NCBI RefSeq assembly: GCF_014280175.1
Contig: NZ_CP047931.1
Location: 540,001 to 572,000 of the forward strand
Length of the DNA: 32,000 bases
Direction: 5' to 3'
Source of the DNA: Synechococcus sp. A15-28
GTDB lineage: Bacteria; Cyanobacteriota; Cyanobacteriia; PCC-6307; Cyanobiaceae
A program made the position numbers and the translations under genes. Positions 4,455 to 32,000 of the stretch are shown in pieces (position 1 is the first letter of the stretch; every line of letters begins with the position of its first letter). The notes beneath the pieces were generated by a model. The model was not told where the DNA came from and ran no database searches. It saw only the letters and a program-made list of their open reading frames with translations.

Positions 4455-7400
4455 ATGAGCAGCAGCGCGATTCAGGTCGCCAAGACCGCCACCTATCTCC
4501 CCGATTTGGTGGAGGTGCAGCGGGCCAGCTTCAAGTGGTTTCTGGATCTGGGCCTGATCGAGGAGCTTGAGAGCTTCTCCCCCATCACCGACTACACCGG
4601 CAAGCTTGAGCTGCATTTCATCGGTAGCGAGTACCGACTGAAGCGTCCCCGCCACGATGTGGAAGAGGCAAAACGTCGTGATGCGACCTTTGCCTCGCAG
4701 ATGTATGTGACCTGTCGCCTGGTCAACAAAGAGACCGGTGAAATCAAGGAGCAGGAGGTCTTCATCGGCGAACTGCCGCTGATGACCGAGCGAGGCACCT
4801 TCATCATCAACGGTGCCGAACGCGTGATCGTGAATCAGATCGTGCGTAGTCCCGGTGTCTATTTCAAAGATGAAATGGACAAGAACGGACGCCGTACCTA
4901 CAACGCCAGCGTCATCCCCAACCGCGGCGCCTGGCTCAAGTTCGAAACCGACAAGAACAGCCTCCTCCACGTCCGCGTCGACAAGACCCGCAAGATCAAT
5001 GCCCACGTGCTGATGCGCGCCATGGGGCTGTCGGACAACGATGTGCTCGACAAGCTGCGGCACCCGGAGTTCTACAAGAAGTCGATTGATGCCGCCAACG
5101 ATGAGGGCATCAGCTCGGAAGACCAGGCCCTGCTGGAGCTCTACAAGAAGCTTCGTCCTGGTGAACCGCCCTCGGTGAGTGGTGGTCAGCAGCTGTTGCA
5201 GACCCGTTTCTTTGATCCCAAGCGCTACGACCTCGGTCGGGTCGGCCGCTACAAGATCAACAAGAAGCTGCGCCTCACCATCCCCGACACGGTGCGCACC
5301 CTCACCCATGAGGACGTGCTGTCCACGCTCGATTACCTGATCAACCTCGAGCTGGATGTCGGCGGCGCCAGCCTCGATGACATCGATCACCTGGGGAACC
5401 GTCGCGTTCGTTCTGTGGGTGAACTCCTTCAGAACCAGGTGCGCGTGGGCCTGAACCGCCTGGAGCGGATCATCAAGGAGCGGATGACGGTTGGCGAAAC
5501 CGATTCGCTGACCCCAGCCCAGTTGGTGAACCCCAAGCCCCTGGTGGCGGCGATCAAGGAGTTCTTCGGCTCCAGCCAGCTGAGCCAGTTCATGGACCAG
5601 ACGAACCCTCTGGCTGAGCTGACCCACAAACGACGGATCTCCGCCCTTGGACCCGGCGGTCTCACCCGTGAGCGTGCCGGCTTCGCCGTCCGCGACATTC
5701 ACCCGTCGCACTACGGCCGTCTCTGTCCGATCGAGACGCCGGAAGGTCCCAACGCCGGCCTGATCAACTCCCTGGCCACCCATGCCCGGGTGAATGAGTA
5801 CGGCTTCATCGAAACTCCGTTCTGGAAGGTGGAGAACGGGGTGGTCCTCAAGGAAGGTGACCCCATCTACCTGTCCGCCGACCGCGAGGATGAAGTGCGC
5901 GTGGCCCCGGGCGATGTCGCCACCGATTCCGATGGACGGATCACGGCCGATCTGATTCCTGTCCGCTATCGCCAGGACTTCGAGAAGGTGCCGCCCGAGC
6001 AGGTGGACTACGTCGCCCTGTCGCCGGTTCAGGTGATCTCGGTCGCTGCATCTCTGATTCCCTTCCTGGAGCACGACGACGCCAACCGTGCCCTGATGGG
6101 GTCCAACATGCAGCGTCAGGCTGTGCCGCTGCTGCGTCCTGAGCGTGCCCTGGTGGGCACGGGCCTGGAAACCCAGGTGGCCCGCGACTCCGGCATGGTG
6201 CCGATTTCACGGGTCAATGGCACCGTGATTTTCGTGGATGCCACCGCCATCGTCGTCCAGGACGACGAGGGGCAGGAGCACACCCACTACCTGCAGAAAT
6301 ATCAGCGTTCCAACCAGGACACCTGCCTCAACCACCGTCCGATCGTCCGCTGCGGCGATCAGGTGATCGTTGGTCAGGTGATGGCGGATGGCTCCGCCTG
6401 CGAGGGCGGTGAAATCGCTCTGGGTCAGAACGTTCTGATCGCCTACATGCCCTGGGAGGGATACAACTTCGAGGACGCCTTGCTGGTGAGCGAGCGTCTG
6501 GTGACCGACGACCTCTACACCTCGGTGCACATCGAGAAATACGAGATCGAGGCGCGCCAGACCAAGCTCGGACCCGAGGAGATCACGCGCGAGATTCCCA
6601 ATGTCGCCGAGGAAAGCCTGGGCAACCTCGACGAGATGGGCATCATTCGCGTCGGTGCCTTCGTGGAAAGCGGCGACATCCTGGTGGGCAAGGTCACGCC
6701 GAAGGGCGAGTCGGACCAGCCGCCGGAAGAGAAGCTGCTGCGGGCGATTTTCGGTGAGAAGGCCCGCGACGTTCGTGACAACTCCCTGCGGGTGCCCGGC
6801 ACCGAGCGTGGACGCGTGGTCGACGTGCGGATCTACACCCGTGAACAGGGTGATGAACTGCCCCCTGGCGCCAACATGGTGGTTCGGGTCTATGTGGCCC
6901 AGCGCCGCAAGATTCAGGTGGGCGACAAGATGGCCGGCCGCCACGGCAACAAGGGCATCATCAGCCGCATCCTTCCGCGGGAGGACATGCCTTACCTGCC
7001 GGATGGCACCCCGGTGGACATCTGCCTCAACCCCCTGGGTGTGCCGAGTCGGATGAACGTCGGCCAGGTGTTCGAGCTGCTGATGGGCTGGGCTGCTTCA
7101 AACCTCGATTCCCGCGTGCGGATCGTGCCTTTCGATGAGATGCACGGTGCCGAGATGTCCCAGGAAACCTGCGAAGCGTTCCTCAAGGAAGCCGCCAAGC
7201 AACCCGGCAAGGCCTGGGTCTACAACCCCGACGACCCTGGAAAGCTGGTGCTGCGGGATGGCCGCACCGGTCAACCCTTTGATCAGCCTGTGGCCGTGGG
7301 CTATTCCCACTTCCTCAAGCTGGTGCACCTGGTGGATGACAAGATCCACGCCCGCTCCACCGGTCCCTACTCCCTGGTCACCCAGCAGCCCCTGGGTGGT

Positions 7401-7748
7401 AAGGCGCAGCAAGGTGGTCAGCGTCTGGGTGAGATGGAGGTGTGGGCTCTTGAGGCCTATGGCGCCGCCTACACCCTGCAGGAACTGCTCACGGTCAAGT
7501 CCGACGACATGCAGGGCCGCAACGAGGCGCTCAACGCCATCGTCAAGGGCAAACCGATCCCCCGCCCCGGCACGCCGGAATCCTTCAAGGTGCTGATGCG
7601 CGAACTCCAGTCCCTCGGACTCGACATCGCTGTGTACACCGATGAAGGCAAGGAAGTGGATCTGATGCAGGACGTGAACCCCCGCCGCAGCACTCCAAGC
7701 CGTCCCACCTACGAATCCCTCGGCGTCGCGGATTACGACGAGGACTGA
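4455..7748 (+). CDS. rpoB: DNA-directed RNA polymerase subunit beta
   Basis: 1097-aa ORF with unmistakable RpoB sequence throughout (e.g. [64 protein letters not shown]). Confidence 0.99.
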
Positions 7749-7798
7749 CGGATCGAACGGATCACAACGACTGAAAGACCTTCCTCCAACCGCCGTCC

Positions 7799-13842
<6,044 letters not shown>

Positions 13843-14035: not shown

Positions 14036-15070
14036 ATGTTGCTCGGCCGCAGCGCGGTCGAGCTGGAGAGCTGGGCGGTTGCTCAGGGGCAGAAGCCCTT
14101 TCGTGGGCGGCAGCTCCATGACTGGCTCTATGCCAAGGGGGCCCGATCCCTGGCGGACATCACCGTGCTCCCCAAGGCCTGGCGGGCATCCCTCAAGGCG
14201 GAAGGGGTTGAGGTGGGCCGCCTCAAGGAGGTGCACCGTTCAGTCGCAGCCGATGCCACAACGAAATTGCTGTTGTCCACCGATGACGGCGAGACGATTG
14301 AAACTGTCGGAATTCCCACCGATCAACGACTCACGGTGTGTGTCTCAAGCCAGGTGGGGTGTCCGATGGCCTGCCGTTTCTGCGCGACGGGCAAAGGCGG
14401 CCTGCAACGCTCTCTGCGGACCCACGAAATTGTTGATCAGGTGCTGAGTGTGCGGGAGGTGATGGACCGCCGCCCCTCCCACATCGTGTTCATGGGCATG
14501 GGGGAGCCACTCCTCAACAGCCAGGCGGTTCTGGATGCCATCCGCTGCCTCAACGACGACCTTGGGATCGGTCAACGTCGCATCACGGTGAGCACCGTTG
14601 GTGTTCCGAAAACGCTTCCACAACTCGCAGAACTGGCTCTGGACACCCTGGGTCGAGCCCAGTTCACCCTGGCGGTGAGCCTTCATGCCCCCAACCAAGC
14701 CCTGCGGGAAGAGCTCATCCCCACGGCTCATGCCTATCCCTATGAGGCCTTGCTGGAGGACTGTCGTCACTACCTGGCCGTCACCGGCCGTCGCGTCAGT
14801 TTTGAGTACATCCTTCTTGGCGGTTTGAACGATGCCCCCGAGCACGCCGCCGAACTGGCGGACCGGGTGGGGGGCTTCCAGAGCCACGTGAACCTGATCG
14901 CCTACAACCCAATTGAGGAGGAGGAGTTTCAACGCCCCACCCGCTCCAGAATTGAGACCTTCCAGCGTGTGCTCGAGCGTCGTGGTGTGGCCGTCAGTCT
15001 GCGAGCCAGCCGCGGCCTGGATCAGAACGCTGCCTGCGGTCAGTTACGGCGTCAACGTCAGGGGAGCTGA
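14036..15070 (+). CDS. rlmN: 23S rRNA/tRNA adenine-C2 methyltransferase, radical SAM
   Basis: [12 protein letters not shown]-terminal motif, radical-SAM [11 protein letters not shown] (CxxxCxxC), MGMGEPLLN, and C-terminal CGQL. The ATG at 14036 is preferred. An alternative GTG at 14027 overlaps the hli stop codon. Confidence 0.93.
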
Positions 15071-15795
15071 GCGGCGGTGAGCTTTTGATGGAGCTGGATG
15101 TCGAGTCCGTAGGTCATTTCGAATTGGCGTTGCACCCGTTCGAGCAGTCGAATGGATTGAGATTGATTGCTCTCTCCCTTTCGACTGCTGTTGAGGTGGG
15201 GGAGTTCTCGGCTTATGGGAATATCACGTTGCAACATCTGCTCGTTTAGGCGCTGCCAGTCTGTCCTCATAGATTCGATGCAGCCGATGAAGTCGGGAAG
15301 CTTTCCTTTTGAGTCGCTGATCAGGAAAGTCTGCGGTTGGGTATGAACATCCATCGCATCAAGGCTCAGGCTGCACGTGAGCTCAACAAATTCACTGAAG
15401 CTCATGGTCTTGTCATATCCAAGACGCTTCATCGCCGGAAAGACCGATGGACGCAGAACCTTTTCTCGATAACAAGAGTGAAGTCTTTGTAGTGGTTCTC
15501 GGATGAATGTAAAGCAAAAAACTTTTTTGCGAAGGGCTGTGTATTTTTCAGATTTTAAAAATTTTGCTTCTGTGGTGCAGTTTTTCCAGAAGCGATCGTT
15601 TGTTGGTTCCAGTGCTCGTTCAGTGCGTGGATTGGTCGTTGGTACTGCTTGTATGAGTTCAGATAGAGCTGTTTTGATCGATGTGTTTGCGCACTTTGGG
15701 ACTCGTGCATAGACGAGCTTGTGATGGGGGATGTAAATAAAGCCTTTCCCTTTCACGATCGCCCCATTCTGTTTGGGCCGAACTTTACGAACCAT
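15058..15795 (-). CDS. Sulfotransferase, family 2 (carbohydrate-sulfotransferase-like)
   Basis: 5'-PSB-like [10 protein letters not shown], 3'-PB-like [16 protein letters not shown] and DVHTQPQ match the Sulfotransfer_2 pattern from memory. The gene is markedly AT-rich: my count for 15481-15600 is 43/120 G+C, against 42/60 for 15841-15900 in the neighbouring symporter. The 3' end overlaps rlmN by 13 nt. Confidence 0.75.
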
Positions 15796-17753: not shown

Positions 17754-18557
17754 TTACCAGAGGTCGGCGTTGAGACCCTCGTTTTCATCATTGCTCTCGG
17801 ATGATGAGTCGTTCTCTTCATCGGCATCGCTGTCAAGGGAATCATCTTCGGGGGTGTCTTTGATGTTGGCCAGGTACCAGCTTTGGCACGCATCAAAACG
17901 TCCCGAGTATGCGATTGTGCCGTTATGAAGAACGATGCCGTCCTGGCAATATTGCTGGAGAACGTTGTAATCCGTATGGGTCATAATCAGAGACTTTCCT
18001 GCAGTTCTCTCCCGCAGGGCCTGTTGGAGCCTCAACAATCGTTCTGATGTTGCATCAGACTTCCAGGCAAAGATCTTGGGGATGATGTAAGTGTCAAAGT
18101 CGAAGGCAAGGGCAACAGCAAGGTAAAACCTTGCCCGCATGAACTTGTTGTACACACGCAGGGGTTTATCGAAGAATCCCTCCTCCAGATCTGCCAGGGT
18201 TTGAATGACCTCGAGATCCCTGTTTCGCTGGCCGCCATGGCCGTACACACCTTGAAGGAAGGCAGCGTTCTGTCGACCCGTTAGTGAGCTCAGTAATCCA
18301 CCACGAACACCGAGTGGCCAACTGACATTGGTGTTGATCGACACCTCACCTTTTTGAACGGATACAACTCCCGCTGCACACTCCAGTAGGGCGTGGGCTT
18401 CACGCATCGATGCAGAGATAACACCAACCCTCTGGCCTTCCATCAGCTGCCAGCTGAGGCCATTCAGCAAGCGTTTGGTTGTTTCTTTGGAGCCGCTGAC
18501 CTCTCGAACCACGCCCTGAAGGTTGAGCAAAGGTCGGGTTGAGGAGGCAATCGTCAT
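17754..18557 (-). CDS. KpsT/TagH-like ABC nucleotide-binding-domain homologue with degenerate catalytic motifs and an acidic C-terminal tail
   Basis: Collinear with capsule/teichoic-type exporter ATPases: VSWPLGVRGGLLSSLTGRQNAAFL, FFDKPLRVYNKFMRARFYLAVALAFDFD, KSLIMTHTDYNVLQQYCQDGIVLHNG. The Walker A position reads VISASMREAH, with no GxxGxGK[ST]. The signature reads YNKFM, not SGG/YSSGM. The Walker B position reads TYIIPK, with no hhhhDE. The C-terminus is DTPEDDSLDSDADEENDSSSESNDENEGLNADLW. The ATG at 18557 is preferred; a TTG lies at 18569. TAA at 17754-17756. Confidence 0.7.
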   Translation of the reverse strand: MTIASSTRPLLNLQGVVREVSGSKETTKRLLNGLSWQLMEGQRVGVISASMREAHALLECAAGVVSVQKGEVSINTNVSWPLGVRGGLLSSLTGRQNAAFLQGVYGHGGQRNRDLEVIQTLADLEEGFFDKPLRVYNKFMRARFYLAVALAFDFDTYIIPKIFAWKSDATSERLLRLQQALRERTAGKSLIMTHTDYNVLQQYCQDGIVLHNGTIAYSGRFDACQSWYLANIKDTPEDDSLDSDADEENDSSSESNDENEGLNADLW

Positions 18558-18572
18558 CCTGGGAAACAACCG

Positions 18573-19658
18573 TTAACCACCGTTGACGGTATCGGCAATC
18601 AACCGATCGCGTAAAGCGGTGAGTTGGCGGGTCTCCTCCTGTTGCTGATCCGACGCAATGGCAGTCGTCACGTTTTCGGGTTGAGCGGGGAAGAGGTCAT
18701 CCCACTGCACGAATGGCCAGAAACACCGGCAGAACTCTGCATTCGAATGTGCGTAACGATCCCGGATGGTTTCCCGAAGCTCGGTGTCCAGACCATCAAA
18801 AGGCTGATTGGGCCATCCCTGCTGTCTGGCCAGGGTTTCGATCGCTGCTCTGAGTGCCTTGTCGTGCTTTCGGAGGATCTTGGGGTTCTGCTCTGTGAGG
18901 TGGGTCCCAATCGCTCGGGCGAGGGCAACCCCAAGGCGTCCTGGTTGCTGATTTTTGGAACGGGCCGGTCGACTTTGTTTTGCAACCTTCGCTGGTAAAG
19001 GCAGCTCCGCGAGCAACTGTTCGTAGGGGTCAGGGCGTGTCTGGATCGATCGGCCGTGGCAGTCCAGCGCAGAACCGAAGGGAATCATCACGGTCTCCAC
19101 TGACACGTGATCCACGAGCCAGCCGAACAACGTCATCAAGTCACATTCACTGATGGTGCTCTCCGTCATCACCCGGGTCACGTAGGACTTGAAATCGCCG
19201 TGAACCGTTAAACGTTTGACCAGCTGGGTGTAGCGGGAGTTGAGGTAACTCTCCTGGTCGCGAATGAAGCCCACAACCTTCAATTTCCATCCATGGGCCT
19301 GCAGCTTTTCGGCCAGCCACAAGCCCCGCGGCTGGGACTTCAGGTTCACTGTTCTTGAAAGGGACCAGGACAGGGCCTCGTGGGAAACGAGCAGATGGCA
19401 GCCTCTGGTTTCGGCTCGGTTGAGCCAACGTCGCCAGGGTTTCCAGCGCCCGTTGGCAAGCGCGTCCAACAGAACACGATCCTGGGGCCGTCGCGCAGGC
19501 ATCAGCAGGCCATGACGTCGCAAAAGTCCGCGGTTTTTGCGGAGTCGCTTCTGGATGTACGTCGAGGCCGTCTTGTGCATGCCGACATGCAGCACCACGG
19601 TCCGCTCGATGGCTGGCTGCGCGGACATGACCGTCTCAGAGAGACTTGGATTCTCCAT
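18573..19658 (-). CDS. Sulfotransferase-fold (P-loop PAPS-binding-like) protein, family unclear
   Basis: VVLHVGMHKTASTYIQKRL resembles a 5'-PSB loop (K-T/S-G/A-S/T-T). GFIRDQESYLNSRYTQLVK resembles a 3'-PB motif (R-D-x...S-x-Y). The ORF-track start at 19838 would overlap the divergent HEAT gene and encodes Arg/Pro-rich junk, so ATG 19658 (MENPSL...) or ATG 19628 (MSAQPAIE...) is preferred. The TAA stop lies 15 nt upstream of the next ATG. Confidence 0.6.
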   Translation of the reverse strand: MENPSLSETVMSAQPAIERTVVLHVGMHKTASTYIQKRLRKNRGLLRRHGLLMPARRPQDRVLLDALANGRWKPWRRWLNRAETRGCHLLVSHEALSWSLSRTVNLKSQPRGLWLAEKLQAHGWKLKVVGFIRDQESYLNSRYTQLVKRLTVHGDFKSYVTRVMTESTISECDLMTLFGWLVDHVSVETVMIPFGSALDCHGRSIQTRPDPYEQLLAELPLPAKVAKQSRPARSKNQQPGRLGVALARAIGTHLTEQNPKILRKHDKALRAAIETLARQQGWPNQPFDGLDTELRETIRDRYAHSNAEFCRCFWPFVQWDDLFPAQPENVTTAIASDQQQEETRQLTALRDRLIADTVNGG

Positions 19659-19702
19659 GATCGAACTGTCGTGGAGACGGACTGTCGACCTACGATCCCA
19701 AC

Positions 19703-30242: not shown

Positions 30243-30269
30243 GATTCAGGAAGGTGTTCAGGGCCCGTG

Positions 30270-32000
30270 ATGGCTGCGTCCGGCCTCGACCCAACAACGA
30301 TCTTTCCCTTCCCGCTGGACGACTTCCAGCTGGAGGCCATCGATGCGCTGAACCAGGGCCATTCGGTGGTGGTGAGTGCCCCCACGGGGTCCGGTAAGAC
30401 CCTGGTGGGGGAGTACGCCATCCATCGGGCCCTCGCCCATGGACAGAAGGTGTTCTACACAACGCCACTCAAGGCGTTGTCCAACCAGAAACTGCGCGAC
30501 TTCCGGGAGGCCTACGGCGAGGACAACGTCGGGTTGATGACCGGTGACTTCAGCGTCAACCGTGAGGCCTCCATCGTTGTGATGACCACGGAGATCTTCC
30601 GCAACATGCTCTATGCGGAAGCCAGTGAGCACGACGACCCGCTGGCGGACGTGGAAGCCGTGGTGCTGGACGAGTGCCACTACATGAACGACTCCCAGCG
30701 CGGCACGGTCTGGGAGGAATCCATCATTCACTGCCCACCCTCGGTGCAGCTGGTGGCTCTGTCGGCGACGGTGGCCAACGCAGTGCAGCTCACCGATTGG
30801 ATCGAGAAGGTGCATGGTCCGACGACCCTGGTGCTCAGCGATCACCGGCCGGTGCCGCTGCAGTTCAGCTTCTGCAGTGCCAAGGGCTTGCATCCGCTTC
30901 TCAATGAGGCGGGAACCGGACTCCACCCCAATTGCAAGGTCTGGCGTGCGCCGAAGGGGCACAAACGCAAGGGACGTTCCGCCAAGCCTCCTCAGCCTGA
31001 GCCGCCACCGATCAGCTTCGTGGTGGCGCAGATGGCGGAACGGGACATGCTCCCCGCCATCTATTTCATTTTCAGCCGCCGTGGTTGCGACAAGGCCGTG
31101 CGTGATCTCGGCATTCAGTGTCTGGTCAACAAGGAGGAGCAGGCCCGGATCCGGGCACGATTGACGGCTTACAGCAATGACAACCCTGAGGCGGTGCGGG
31201 ATGGCATCCATGCCGATGCCCTGCTGAGGGGAATCGCCGCCCACCATGCCGGCGTCCTTCCGGCCTGGAAGGAATTGATTGAAGAGCTGTTCCAGCAGGG
31301 CCTGGTCAAGGTGGTCTTCGCGACGGAAACCCTGGCTGCCGGTATCAACATGCCGGCCCGCACCACCGTGATCGCGGCTTTGTCCAAACGCACGGAACGG
31401 GGCCATCGTCCGCTGATGGGCAGTGAGTTCCTGCAGATGGCCGGTCGCGCCGGGCGTCGCGGCCTGGATTCAAAGGGCTACGTCGTCACCGTTCAGAGCC
31501 GCTTCGAAGGCGTTCGGGAAGCGGGGCAGCTGGCCACCAGCCCTGCGGATCCGCTAGTCAGTCAGTTCACCCCCAGTTACGGCATGGTGCTGAACCTGCT
31601 GCAGCGCCATGACCTCAACAAGGCACGGGAATTGGTGGAGCGCAGTTTCGGGCGCTATCTGGCCAGCCTGGATCTGGTGGAGGAAGAGGAGATGCTGTCC
31701 CAACTGAGGCTGCAGCTCGGACAGCTTGAGGGGGTGGCAGGGGACATCCCCTGGGAGGACTTCGAGGAGTACGAAAAGCTCCGAGGCCGTCTGCGGGAGG
31801 AGCGGCGACTGCTGCGGATTCTGCAGCAACAGGCTGAAGAGACCCTGGCCAACGAACTCACCCTGGCGTTGCAGTTCGCCAGCACCGGCACGCTGGTGAG
31901 CCTCAAATCACCGCAGCTGCGCGGCAAGGTGACCCCCGCCGTGATCGTCGACAAAGTGGACGGCCCCGGTCAGTTCCCGCTGCTGCTCTGCCTCAGCGAT
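30270..32000 (+). CDS. Ski2/HelY-like DEAD/DEAH-box (superfamily 2) helicase, 3' end beyond window
   Basis: Not in the ORF track because there is no stop inside the window. I translated it by hand from ATG 30270 to base 32000, 577 codons with no stop. Motif I SAPTGSGKT, motif II VLDECHY, motif III LSATVAN, HHAGVLPAWKELIEELFQQGLVKVVFATETLAAGINMPART, and motif VI QMAGRAGRRG. Confidence 0.9.
   Translation, partial: MAASGLDPTTIFPFPLDDFQLEAIDALNQGHSVVVSAPTGSGKTLVGEYAIHRALAHGQKVFYTTPLKALSNQKLRDFREAYGEDNVGLMTGDFSVNREASIVVMTTEIFRNMLYAEASEHDDPLADVEAVVLDECHYMNDSQRGTVWEESIIHCPPSVQLVALSATVANAVQLTDWIEKVHGPTTLVLSDHRPVPLQFSFCSAKGLHPLLNEAGTGLHPNCKVWRAPKGHKRKGRSAKPPQPEPPPISFVVAQMAERDMLPAIYFIFSRRGCDKAVRDLGIQCLVNKEEQARIRARLTAYSNDNPEAVRDGIHADALLRGIAAHHAGVLPAWKELIEELFQQGLVKVVFATETLAAGINMPARTTVIAALSKRTERGHRPLMGSEFLQMAGRAGRRGLDSKGYVVTVQSRFEGVREAGQLATSPADPLVSQFTPSYGMVLNLLQRHDLNKARELVERSFGRYLASLDLVEEEEMLSQLRLQLGQLEGVAGDIPWEDFEEYEKLRGRLREERRLLRILQQQAEETLANELTLALQFASTGTLVSLKSPQLRGKVTPAVIVDKVDGPGQFPLLLCLSD

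Follow-up and report, generated by a model that had tools for sequence, protein, structure and literature searches.

A KpsT-type ABC nucleotide-binding domain with replaced catalytic motifs in picocyanobacteria, and its candidate place in polysaccharide export

What can the nucleotide-binding domain (NBD) of a polysaccharide exporter be kept for, once every motif with which such domains handle ATP has been replaced? The question is raised by a gene in a 32,000-nucleotide stretch of the Synechococcus sp. A15-28 genome (contig NZ_CP047931.1, positions 540,001 to 572,000), hereafter the window, to which all positions refer unless another locus is named. The original prediction, made from the letters of the window alone, took its product for a homologue of polysaccharide-export ATP-binding cassette (ABC) ATPases, maintained as a pseudo-enzyme, with an acidic tail and no permease partner; it left unstated the strand, which is the minus strand. 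The degenerate protein is called NBD* below, and the partner encoded upstream of it is called X:

17754..18557, minus strand: NBD*, 267 amino acids plus stop, KpsT-type ABC nucleotide-binding domain with all catalytic motifs replaced
18573..19658, minus strand: X, 361 amino acids, isoelectric point 9.9, net charge +15, adjoining NBD* in all marine loci

Homology, fold and loss of the ATP-handling motifs

The open reading frame (ORF) of NBD* begins with ATG; translation could alternatively start at a TTG at 18569, which is in frame. The protein escapes curated family models: Pfam, ABC_tran (PF00005) included, gives no match even at E ≤ 1, precomputed PF00005 matches are lacking for all 34 orthologue clusters, and NCBIfam yields only Wzt/RfbE, TagH and VexC at 31-43 bits against cut-offs of 313-538, so that neither the Pfam gathering score nor the NCBIfam equivalog cut-offs are reached. 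Because Pfam was empty, homology was drawn from a phmmer comparison with the PDB, from the sub-threshold NCBIfam matches and from a fold search. The top PDB match is KpsT in the KpsMT-KpsE complex (8tsi_A, E 1.6e-21, residues 31-235), followed by Wzt (6amx and 6m96, about 2e-11) and TarH/TagH (1e-9 to 1e-5). An AlphaFold2 (AF2) model computed from the family alignment is confident over residues 5-240 (mean predicted local distance difference test, pLDDT, 81.3; predicted template modelling score, pTM, 0.79) and has the RecA-like and helical subdomains of an ABC NBD; Foldseek matches it to KpsT, TagH and Wzt chains (best E 3e-17, or about 1e-16; target-normalised TM-score 0.80-0.83). Since the PDB sequence matches and the modelled fold agree, NBD* is, by homology and predicted fold, a KpsT-type ABC nucleotide-binding domain. 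The proposed kinship with polysaccharide-export NBDs is thus far beyond chance, and the alignments show that the substitutions in the motifs are real. In the databases the protein is a 'hypothetical protein' (NCBI), and its family a 'capsular polysaccharide transport system ATP-binding protein' (IMG).

The register of the motifs was established with HMMER, with MAFFT (including three canonical ABC ATPases) and with hmmalign (46 loci), and all three alignments agree on the following positions:

18390..18425, minus strand: former Walker A, residues 45-56, GVISASMREAHA, with no glycine-rich loop and no lysine
18267..18323, minus strand: retained Q-loop region, residues 79-97, SWPxG...LTGRQN block
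18126..18152, minus strand: former signature, residues 136-144, YNKFMRARF replacing YSSGMxxRL
18060..18104, minus strand: former Walker B and D-loop, residues 152-166, FDFDTYIIPKIFAWK, with Pro-Lys for Asp-Glu and FAWK for AVGD
17967..17990, minus strand: former H-loop, residues 190-197, LIMTHTDY, with the switch histidine out of register

Where canonical KpsT has GRNGAGKST, NBD* has SASMREAHA, with Glu53 and Ala54 standing in place of the G and K of GK[ST], and direct reading of the protein finds the pattern G.{4}GK[ST] nowhere in it. In the AF2 model a strand (43-48) is followed by a helix from residue 51, which is the strand/P-loop/helix order of canonical NBDs with a shorter loop. The ABC signature YSSGM (LSGGQ elsewhere) has become YNKFM, and the position of YLIDEAMAVGD is filled by TYIIPKIFAWKS, which puts IIPKIFAWKSD where LIDEAMAVGD is expected. 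The H-loop ILVSHN has become IMTHTD (VSHN to THTD), with a histidine that is off register by one position and is missing altogether in most orthologues (LMTNTD, LMANTD). A lone 'GKS' at residues 187-189 is not a P-loop, because in the model it comes after a helix and before a strand. On the other hand, two blocks are common to NBD* and canonical KpsT, namely SWPxG...N in the Q-loop region and LAxSLAFDFDxY; the former, as part of the SWPxG...LTGRQN block, is presumed from general ABC architecture to be the interface with a permease. The erosion of all nucleotide-handling motifs that had been proposed is hereby confirmed, and from these substitutions NBD* is predicted neither to bind nor to hydrolyse ATP at the canonical site.

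Selection, phylogeny and the acidic tail of the degenerate clade

A protein that has lost all catalytic motifs, whose GC content at third codon positions (GC3) lies below that of the flanks and which NCBI calls hypothetical might be the product of a decaying pseudogene or of a sequencing frameshift. We consider this explanation refuted and give it practically no credence, as more than 40 independent loci keep an open frame, the ratio of nonsynonymous to synonymous substitution rates (dN/dS) is about 0.1, the fold is confident, and the replaced residues and a terminal LW are conserved. In unsaturated pairs, to which the Nei-Gojobori estimates were confined, NBD* has a dN/dS of 0.07-0.16 (0.11-0.155 among L002, L003 and L004, at dS 0.10-0.19; 0.074 and 0.079 between the window and L010 and L011, respectively), compared with 0.05-0.13 for the adjoining SSF transporter and 0.03-0.08 for RlmN; values for X in L008 and for the Sulfotransfer_2 gene in L006 were disregarded, as a stop codon inside the high-scoring pair had shifted the codon map. 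The 34 full-length orthologue clusters are 49-99% identical, and within the family the residues at the former motifs are kept as GVISxSMxEAHAFL, YNKFMRARF and FDFDVYIIPKxFAW. In the marine family the former motif windows are 0.75-0.89 identical as against 0.70 for the remaining core: mean identity is 0.75 for the former Walker A, 0.84 for the former Walker B and, highest of all, 0.89 for the former signature, while the Q-loop block stands at 0.82. Moreover, according to hmmalign motif scoring, all 46 of the 46 NBDs adjoining X are fully degenerate. By these sequence comparisons NBD* is not a pseudogene and evolves under purifying selection, as expected of the maintained pseudo-enzyme originally proposed, with substitutions conserved above the core average and dN/dS far from 1.

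Treated at first as a single oddity, NBD* turns out to be one member of a monophyletic subfamily of some 24-26 clusters at 50% identity. When 1.84 billion representatives were searched with a profile, 27 proteins reached E ≤ 1e-30, and among the top 115 single-domain matches (clusters at 50% identity) 24-26 are fully degenerate and fall into three subgroups, A, B and C. A neighbour-joining tree groups the fully degenerate sequences into a single clade, whose 26 tips include no canonical sequence and in which each subgroup is monophyletic; all named members come from picocyanobacteria (Synechococcus, Cyanobium, Parasynechococcus). Because the residues at the former motifs differ between A, B and C, structural retention is indicated rather than a shared new active site. 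Apart from this clade, a handful of relatives (among them P0366, P0371, P0397 and P0455) are partially degenerate, having either an intact Walker A and no catalytic glutamate (TDS, ADG), as in P0366 and P0371, or GR in place of GK; they could represent intermediate stages of the loss or losses that occurred independently.

The marine subgroup, and only this subgroup, carries an additional C-terminal element:

17757..17858, minus strand: disordered acidic tail of NBD*, residues 234-267, net charge -15, ending in ...DLW-COOH, pLDDT below 50

The core of NBD* has a net charge of +6, and the last approximately 26 residues are disordered in the AF2 model. In 21 orthologues the tail is 32-36 residues long, has a net charge of -9 to -15 and contains just 22 basic residues out of 711; its terminus is LW in 21 of 21 and DDLW in 11. 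Its internal identity is low (0.41) and the fraction of serine and threonine varies among orthologues from 0.03 to 0.28. Thus, the 34-residue acidic tail noticed originally is real, but its richness in serine is specific to A15-28. From its composition the tail looks like a constrained polyanionic linker ending in a short docking motif. In a freshwater member of subgroup B (L015), both KpsM (14173-15021, ...EGGGSDEEGDSIDI) and NBD* (12231-13106) are acidic-tailed, with no LW terminus.

Genomic linkage with KpsM and KpsE, and the partner X

For the analysis of genomic context 98 loci and the window were annotated with custom hidden Markov models and motif scoring; the set had been widened via the X family and hence reaches further than the NBD* search. 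The following architectures were observed:

X-NBD* alone (marine): 25+ loci
X-NBD*-KpsM-KpsE: L014, L039, L040, L046
lone X ... NBD*-X'-KpsM-KpsE (freshwater): L015, L018-L022, L024-L026, L028-L031, L033, L034
NBD*-KpsM-KpsE with no X (subgroup C): L098/L099, beside pyruvyl- and glycosyltransferases
lone or tandem X paralogues with no NBD: many loci

In the KpsM-linked architectures the genes overlap or abut, and in many lineages NBD* is the sole NBD-like gene of the kpsM-kpsE operon. Around some 25 KpsM-KpsE loci, with flanks of up to 10 kb covered, there is no intact NBD. In the whole set of loci the sole ORF in which Walker A, signature and Walker B are all intact is kpsT of the control L009, which lies in a normal kpsM-kpsT-kpsE-kpsD operon. 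A KpsD/Poly_export (KpsD/Wza) gene was not seen near any of the cyanobacterial kpsM-kpsE loci.

The window itself contains no KpsM gene. However, marine Synechococcus do carry KpsM and KpsE (CAE07154 in WH8102, with orthologues in A15-127, KORDI-49 and BOUM118), and the best PDB matches of these proteins are chains C and E of 8tsh (E 6e-20 and 6e-38), the same solved complex that contains KpsT. On contig NHIA01000031.1, kpsM-kpsE lie about 17 kb from X-NBD*, after bio genes-SBF-helicase-fumarase-DUF1997, and have no NBD gene adjoining. The window ends within the helicase of this series:

30258..32000, plus strand: DEAD/DSHCT (Ski2-like) helicase by Pfam, 5' part, 581 codons of a 915-amino-acid protein, synteny marker

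In tblastn its product is 94% identical to the copy in L017 (5207-7954) over residues 3-583 of 915. As the window stops in the helicase that precedes fumarase-DUF1997-kpsM-kpsE, kpsM-kpsE are predicted by synteny with NHIA01000031.1 to lie approximately 3 kb beyond position 32000. The reported lack of a permease partner therefore holds inside the window and is an artefact of its edge: in non-marine relatives the gene is operonic with KpsM and KpsE. In freshwater L015 a helicase (6761-9457)-DUF1997 pair stands directly before the X/NBD*/KpsM/KpsE module. The helicase-DUF1997 pair thus precedes a kps-like module in both marine and freshwater lineages and marks the ancestral insertion site, and since in L015 it directly precedes the module, it appears to be the marine lineage that moved X-NBD* from its ancestral place.

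Fifty members of the X family have no Pfam match at E ≤ 10, and neither sequence nor profile searches match X to the PDB. The mechanical ORF extends to 19838, 180 nt further and antisense into the neighbouring HEAT-repeat gene, but orthologues start near 19658. The AF2 model is confident (pLDDT 91.9), and its weak Foldseek matches (E 6e-3 to 0.1) are zeta/PezT toxins, dTMP and adenylate kinases, PFK-2, PPK2, SULT2A1 and LGS1, all within the P-loop kinase/sulfotransferase fold class and split between nucleotide or sugar kinases and sulfotransferases. Two segments of X resemble sulfotransferase motifs:

19560..19589, minus strand: 5'-phosphosulfate-binding-like loop of X, residues 24-33, HVGMHKTAST, strand-loop-helix, invariant K29-T30-A31
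19230..19268, minus strand: 3'-phosphate-binding-like motif of X, residues 131-143, FIRDQESYLNSRY (FIRDQxSYLNSRY), R133...S141 at a spacing of 8

Judged by its letters, the former segment is closer to the 5'-phosphosulfate-binding loop of sulfotransferases (PKxGTT) than to a Walker A. In the latter, the spacing R133-x7-S141 matches the sulfotransferase 3'-phosphate-binding motif, in columns that are invariant or nearly so, and hhalign places residues 131-143 on this motif in two sulfotransferases (one of them IVRNPLDRIVSQW), at non-significant E values of 0.07-0.38. Because the hhalign matches are not significant, X is called sulfotransferase-like here and not a member of that family; we infer from the model a P-loop kinase/sulfotransferase-like fold. 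Paralogues of X that are lone or tandem and adjoin no NBD were found in L013, where X has a core-genome context between a GATase gene and a metallo-beta-lactamase-fold gene, and also in L052-L054, L061-L063, L067, L070 and L078-L097. Given so many paralogues without an NBD, X is a broader picocyanobacterial enzyme family for which Pfam has no model, and reaches beyond the partnership with NBD*.

In the window the stop codon of X lies 3-15 nt upstream of the NBD* start, in orthologues the two genes overlap, and no promoter-like or terminator-like site is predicted between them. The co-transcription that had been proposed is consistent with this co-oriented, near-abutting arrangement, while the sulfotransferase identity proposed for the partner has no significant match. 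The gene order is rpoB-rpoC1-rpoC2-rlmN-(Sulfotransfer_2)-SSF(+) / NBD*(-) X(-) / HEAT(+)-DUF2997-DUF1257-Fer4-AKR-gidB...bio genes-SBF-helicase, and from rpoB to the helicase it is kept in all marine loci examined. Between rlmN and SSF there is one more gene of atypical composition:

15058..15795, minus strand: Sulfotransfer_2 family gene, Pfam E 9e-22, GC 0.48, GC3 0.51

L001, L003 and L004 have an intact copy of this gene, L002 and L006 a frameshifted one, and the otherwise syntenic L005 and L012 none. GC3 is 0.59 and 0.69 in the X-NBD* cassette, as against 0.73-0.80 in the flanks. Between the window and L006 the flanking SSF and RlmN genes have dS of about 0.55 and dN of 0.02-0.03, whereas NBD* has reached synonymous saturation, at a dN of 0.40, and the dN of X is 0.49. 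That the cassette diverges much faster than its flanks and has lower GC3 suggests that the alleles at a fixed core-genome locus have been replaced or are very old, a pattern typical of genes for surface structures. Such hypervariability between close genomes fits a cell-surface trait under pressure from phages or grazers, and the Sulfotransfer_2 gene possibly belongs to the same surface-polysaccharide function as X-NBD*. A sulfated or acidic polymer would suit the gene surroundings, with Sulfotransfer_1/2/3, NeuB and BNR genes in L014 and L015 and the Sulfotransfer_2 gene in the window.

Several neighbouring features deserve a brief description. Around X-NBD*-KpsM-KpsE in L014 (3903-5144 and 9319-15731) and L015 (11017-12183) there are BNR/sialidase-like genes, a gene for NeuB (sialic-acid synthase), two sulfotransferase genes and three DUF6716 genes, a set that hints at a sulfated polymer with nonulosonic acids. 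Downstream of the marine kpsM-kpsE in L016 (6320-7111 and 10069-13367), genes for proteins of 263, 237, 408 and 436 amino acids with no Pfam match lie among large GT2/RgpF glycosyltransferases. An anti-phage defence system, an idea suggested by the hypervariable low-GC cassette, was abandoned when PADLOC defence models at E ≤ 0.1 matched none of the three proteins NBD*, X and Sulfotransfer_2; neither tRNA genes nor Rfam elements flank the cassette. A functional link between NBD* and the SSF symporter, its convergent neighbour in all marine loci, was dropped as well, SSF being absent at L014, L015 and L098. That the HEAT-repeat protein binds the acidic tail would be speculation, prompted solely by an adjacency specific to the marine loci. 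Between the likely start of X (19658, minus strand) and the divergent HEAT-repeat gene (19703, plus strand) there are some 44 bp (19659-19702), in which a simple scan finds no sigma-70-like promoter.

Known systems, possible roles and significance

The closest known relative in sequence and fold is KpsT of the KpsMT-KpsE-KpsD system of group 2 capsules (8tsh/8tsi/8tsl; PMC11041684). Both proteins belong to the same length class, lack the C-terminal carbohydrate-binding domain of the Wzt type and share the SWPxG and FDFDxY blocks, and relatives of NBD* are operonic with KpsM and KpsE homologues that match the same complex. However, canonical KpsT is an essential ATPase, whereas NBD* has every catalytic motif replaced, has gained a polyanionic LW tail and the partner X, and has no KpsD/Poly_export gene next to its cyanobacterial loci. 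Wzt and TagH (TarH), of the type V exporters of O-antigen and teichoic acid, are second-tier matches with the same class of ABC-2 permease, and their NBDs carry a gate helix that KpsT is without (PMC11041684). They differ from NBD* in being catalytically intact and, often in Wzt, in a C-terminal carbohydrate-binding module (CBM; PF14524).

NBD sites that do not hydrolyse ATP are also kept, for structural or allosteric roles, in heterodimeric ABC exporters with one degenerate ATP site, such as TM287/288, TmrAB, BmrCD and, with its NBD1, CFTR. To our knowledge these always retain one fully consensus site, whereas with NBD* no consensus site can assemble, because the only NBD in the operon has lost every motif. 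A cytoplasmic tailoring enzyme tied to an ABC polysaccharide exporter, as proposed for X, is known from the WbdD-type chain terminators (kinase/methyltransferase) coupled to Wzm-Wzt export; the X family is unrelated to them, and their coupling is via the CBM of Wzt and not via a dead NBD. Finally, SbmA/SLiPT is an ABC-type membrane domain that works without ATP hydrolysis, driven by the proton gradient (PMC13316013), and by analogy would be a precedent for ATP-independent translocation, although in SbmA no NBD is left and the transmembrane domain is type IV-like, in contrast to the type V (ABC-2) permease and the folded dead NBD considered here.

On balance we lean towards the view that NBD* resides in a KpsM-KpsE polysaccharide exporter as a non-catalytic subunit, occupying the KpsT position and acting as a scaffold, a gate or a docking platform for X. 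As it keeps the ABC NBD fold and the Q-loop block by which canonical NBDs grip their permease, it could hold or gate the cytoplasmic face of the KpsM dimer. Cytoplasmic tailoring enzymes may also dock on it; in subgroups A and B this would be the basic, sulfotransferase-like X encoded alongside. In the marine lineage, where the pair X-NBD* would have been relocated about 16 kb from kpsM-kpsE, the tail could serve as a tether or as a substrate-mimicking plug for a basic partner (X, with its charge of +15, or the cytoplasmic face of KpsM). Polymer translocation would then draw its energy from something other than NBD*. The data show the fold, the loss of the motifs, purifying selection, monophyly, the operon linkage with KpsM and KpsE in relatives and the lack of an intact NBD in those loci; the complex with KpsM, the docking of X, the function of the tail and, above all, an ATP-independent energy source are deduced from them. 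In line with this view, kpsE, kpsM and 'kpsT' are listed among the differentially expressed genes of an oceanic clade II strain (PMC12274634). The roles originally suggested were those of a regulator, a scaffold or a recognition module for a transporter encoded elsewhere; scaffold and module come close to the one favoured here, while the permease shares the operon in relatives.

Several points weigh against such an exporter subunit. The complexes of NBD* with KpsM and with X are deduced rather than directly observed, and in the lineage of the window the pair X-NBD* is unlinked from kpsM. The monophyly in the neighbour-joining tree could reflect long-branch attraction among fast-evolving degenerate sequences, and the residues at the former motifs, which differ among subgroups A, B and C, leave the role of these conserved positions unexplained. 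In KpsMT the single Walker B change E151Q abolishes export (PMC11041684), so an exporter with a dead NBD needs another source of energy; either an ATPase is encoded elsewhere or translocation is independent of ATP. The negative result for intact NBDs covers the flanks of the loci, and an intact KpsT or Wzt may be encoded elsewhere in the genome. In the boldest reading, KpsM-KpsE of picocyanobacteria might be a type V ABC exporter turned into an ATP-independent conduit, in which the NBD engine was already dead when subgroups A, B and C split, with the dead NBD as a scaffold or gate and, in the marine lineage, a polyanionic, substrate-mimicking LW tail; the drive could be polymer synthesis or modification, the membrane potential or the P-loop protein X. 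This possibility we entertain tentatively, being more inclined to doubt it than to accept it.

The same dependence of canonical KpsMT on ATP hydrolysis (PMC11041684) would suit a different arrangement, in which an intact KpsT-type ATPase encoded elsewhere powers KpsM, and NBD* is a regulatory decoy or adaptor that competes or pairs with it, switching export or coupling it to sulfation by X. The distance between X-NBD* and kpsM-kpsE in marine genomes, the confinement of the search for intact NBDs to the loci and a tail that could be autoinhibitory or competing are all compatible with it. We nevertheless hold it to be unlikely, given that NBD* is translationally coupled to KpsM in the approximately 25 KpsM-KpsE loci whose flanks have no intact NBD, that the dead state is old and monophyletic, and that pairing NBD* with an intact NBD could not produce a composite ATP site that is fully canonical, as Walker A and signature are both lost. 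The marine NBD* might alternatively work with X independently of KpsM, for instance by regulating a sulfotransferase-like enzyme, or presenting substrate to it, as its non-catalytic subunit, so that the linkage with KpsM would be ancestral only. The adjacency of X and NBD* is indeed kept in all marine loci despite their separation from kpsM, the two co-vary as a fast-diverging low-GC cassette, their charges are complementary (+15 for X and -15 for the tail), and the acidic LW tail is restricted to the marine lineage. But marine kpsM-kpsE persist with no other NBD nearby, the presumed permease-gripping Q-loop block is retained at 0.82 identity, and NBD* of subgroup C works without X, for which reasons this arrangement, too, seems improbable to us. 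A somewhat smaller chance still is given to a remodelled site that still binds a ligand, be it a nucleotide bound in a non-canonical manner or another anion, such as 3'-phosphoadenosine 5'-phosphosulfate (PAPS), 3'-phosphoadenosine 5'-phosphate (PAP) or the acidic polymer, and that makes NBD* a sensor or a weak enzyme. It would accord with the above-average conservation of the former motif positions in the marine family, with the basic core (+6) and with the existence of partially degenerate relatives (P0366, P0371). The P-loop glycines and lysine are gone, however, with a glutamate at the phosphate-cradle position, the AF2 model extends the helix into the loop, and the replacement residues are not conserved across A, B and C.

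The literature on degenerate KpsT, on ABC pseudoenzymes and on these Synechococcus genes yielded nothing specific beyond automatic names; what is new here is a KpsMT-type system in which the NBD is dead throughout and has a partner, X, from a new family. A phylum-wide survey of extracellular polymeric substances (EPS) defined KpsT by PF00005 and concluded that marine picocyanobacteria are without most EPS export genes (PMC4594306). As NBD* proteins fail PF00005, it would have missed them. On the other hand, annotation of the IMG, KEGG and Cyanorak style labels the family as a capsular polysaccharide ATP-binding protein, and because of this label metabolic and transcriptomic studies of marine Synechococcus, which include some of the world's most abundant phototrophs, enter as an ATPase a protein that is almost certainly none. 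What defines ABC exporters is the ATP-driven dimerisation of their NBDs, and a KpsT clade without ATP-handling motifs would be a natural experiment, which bears on the roles of NBDs besides ATP hydrolysis and on whether a type V permease may work without it.

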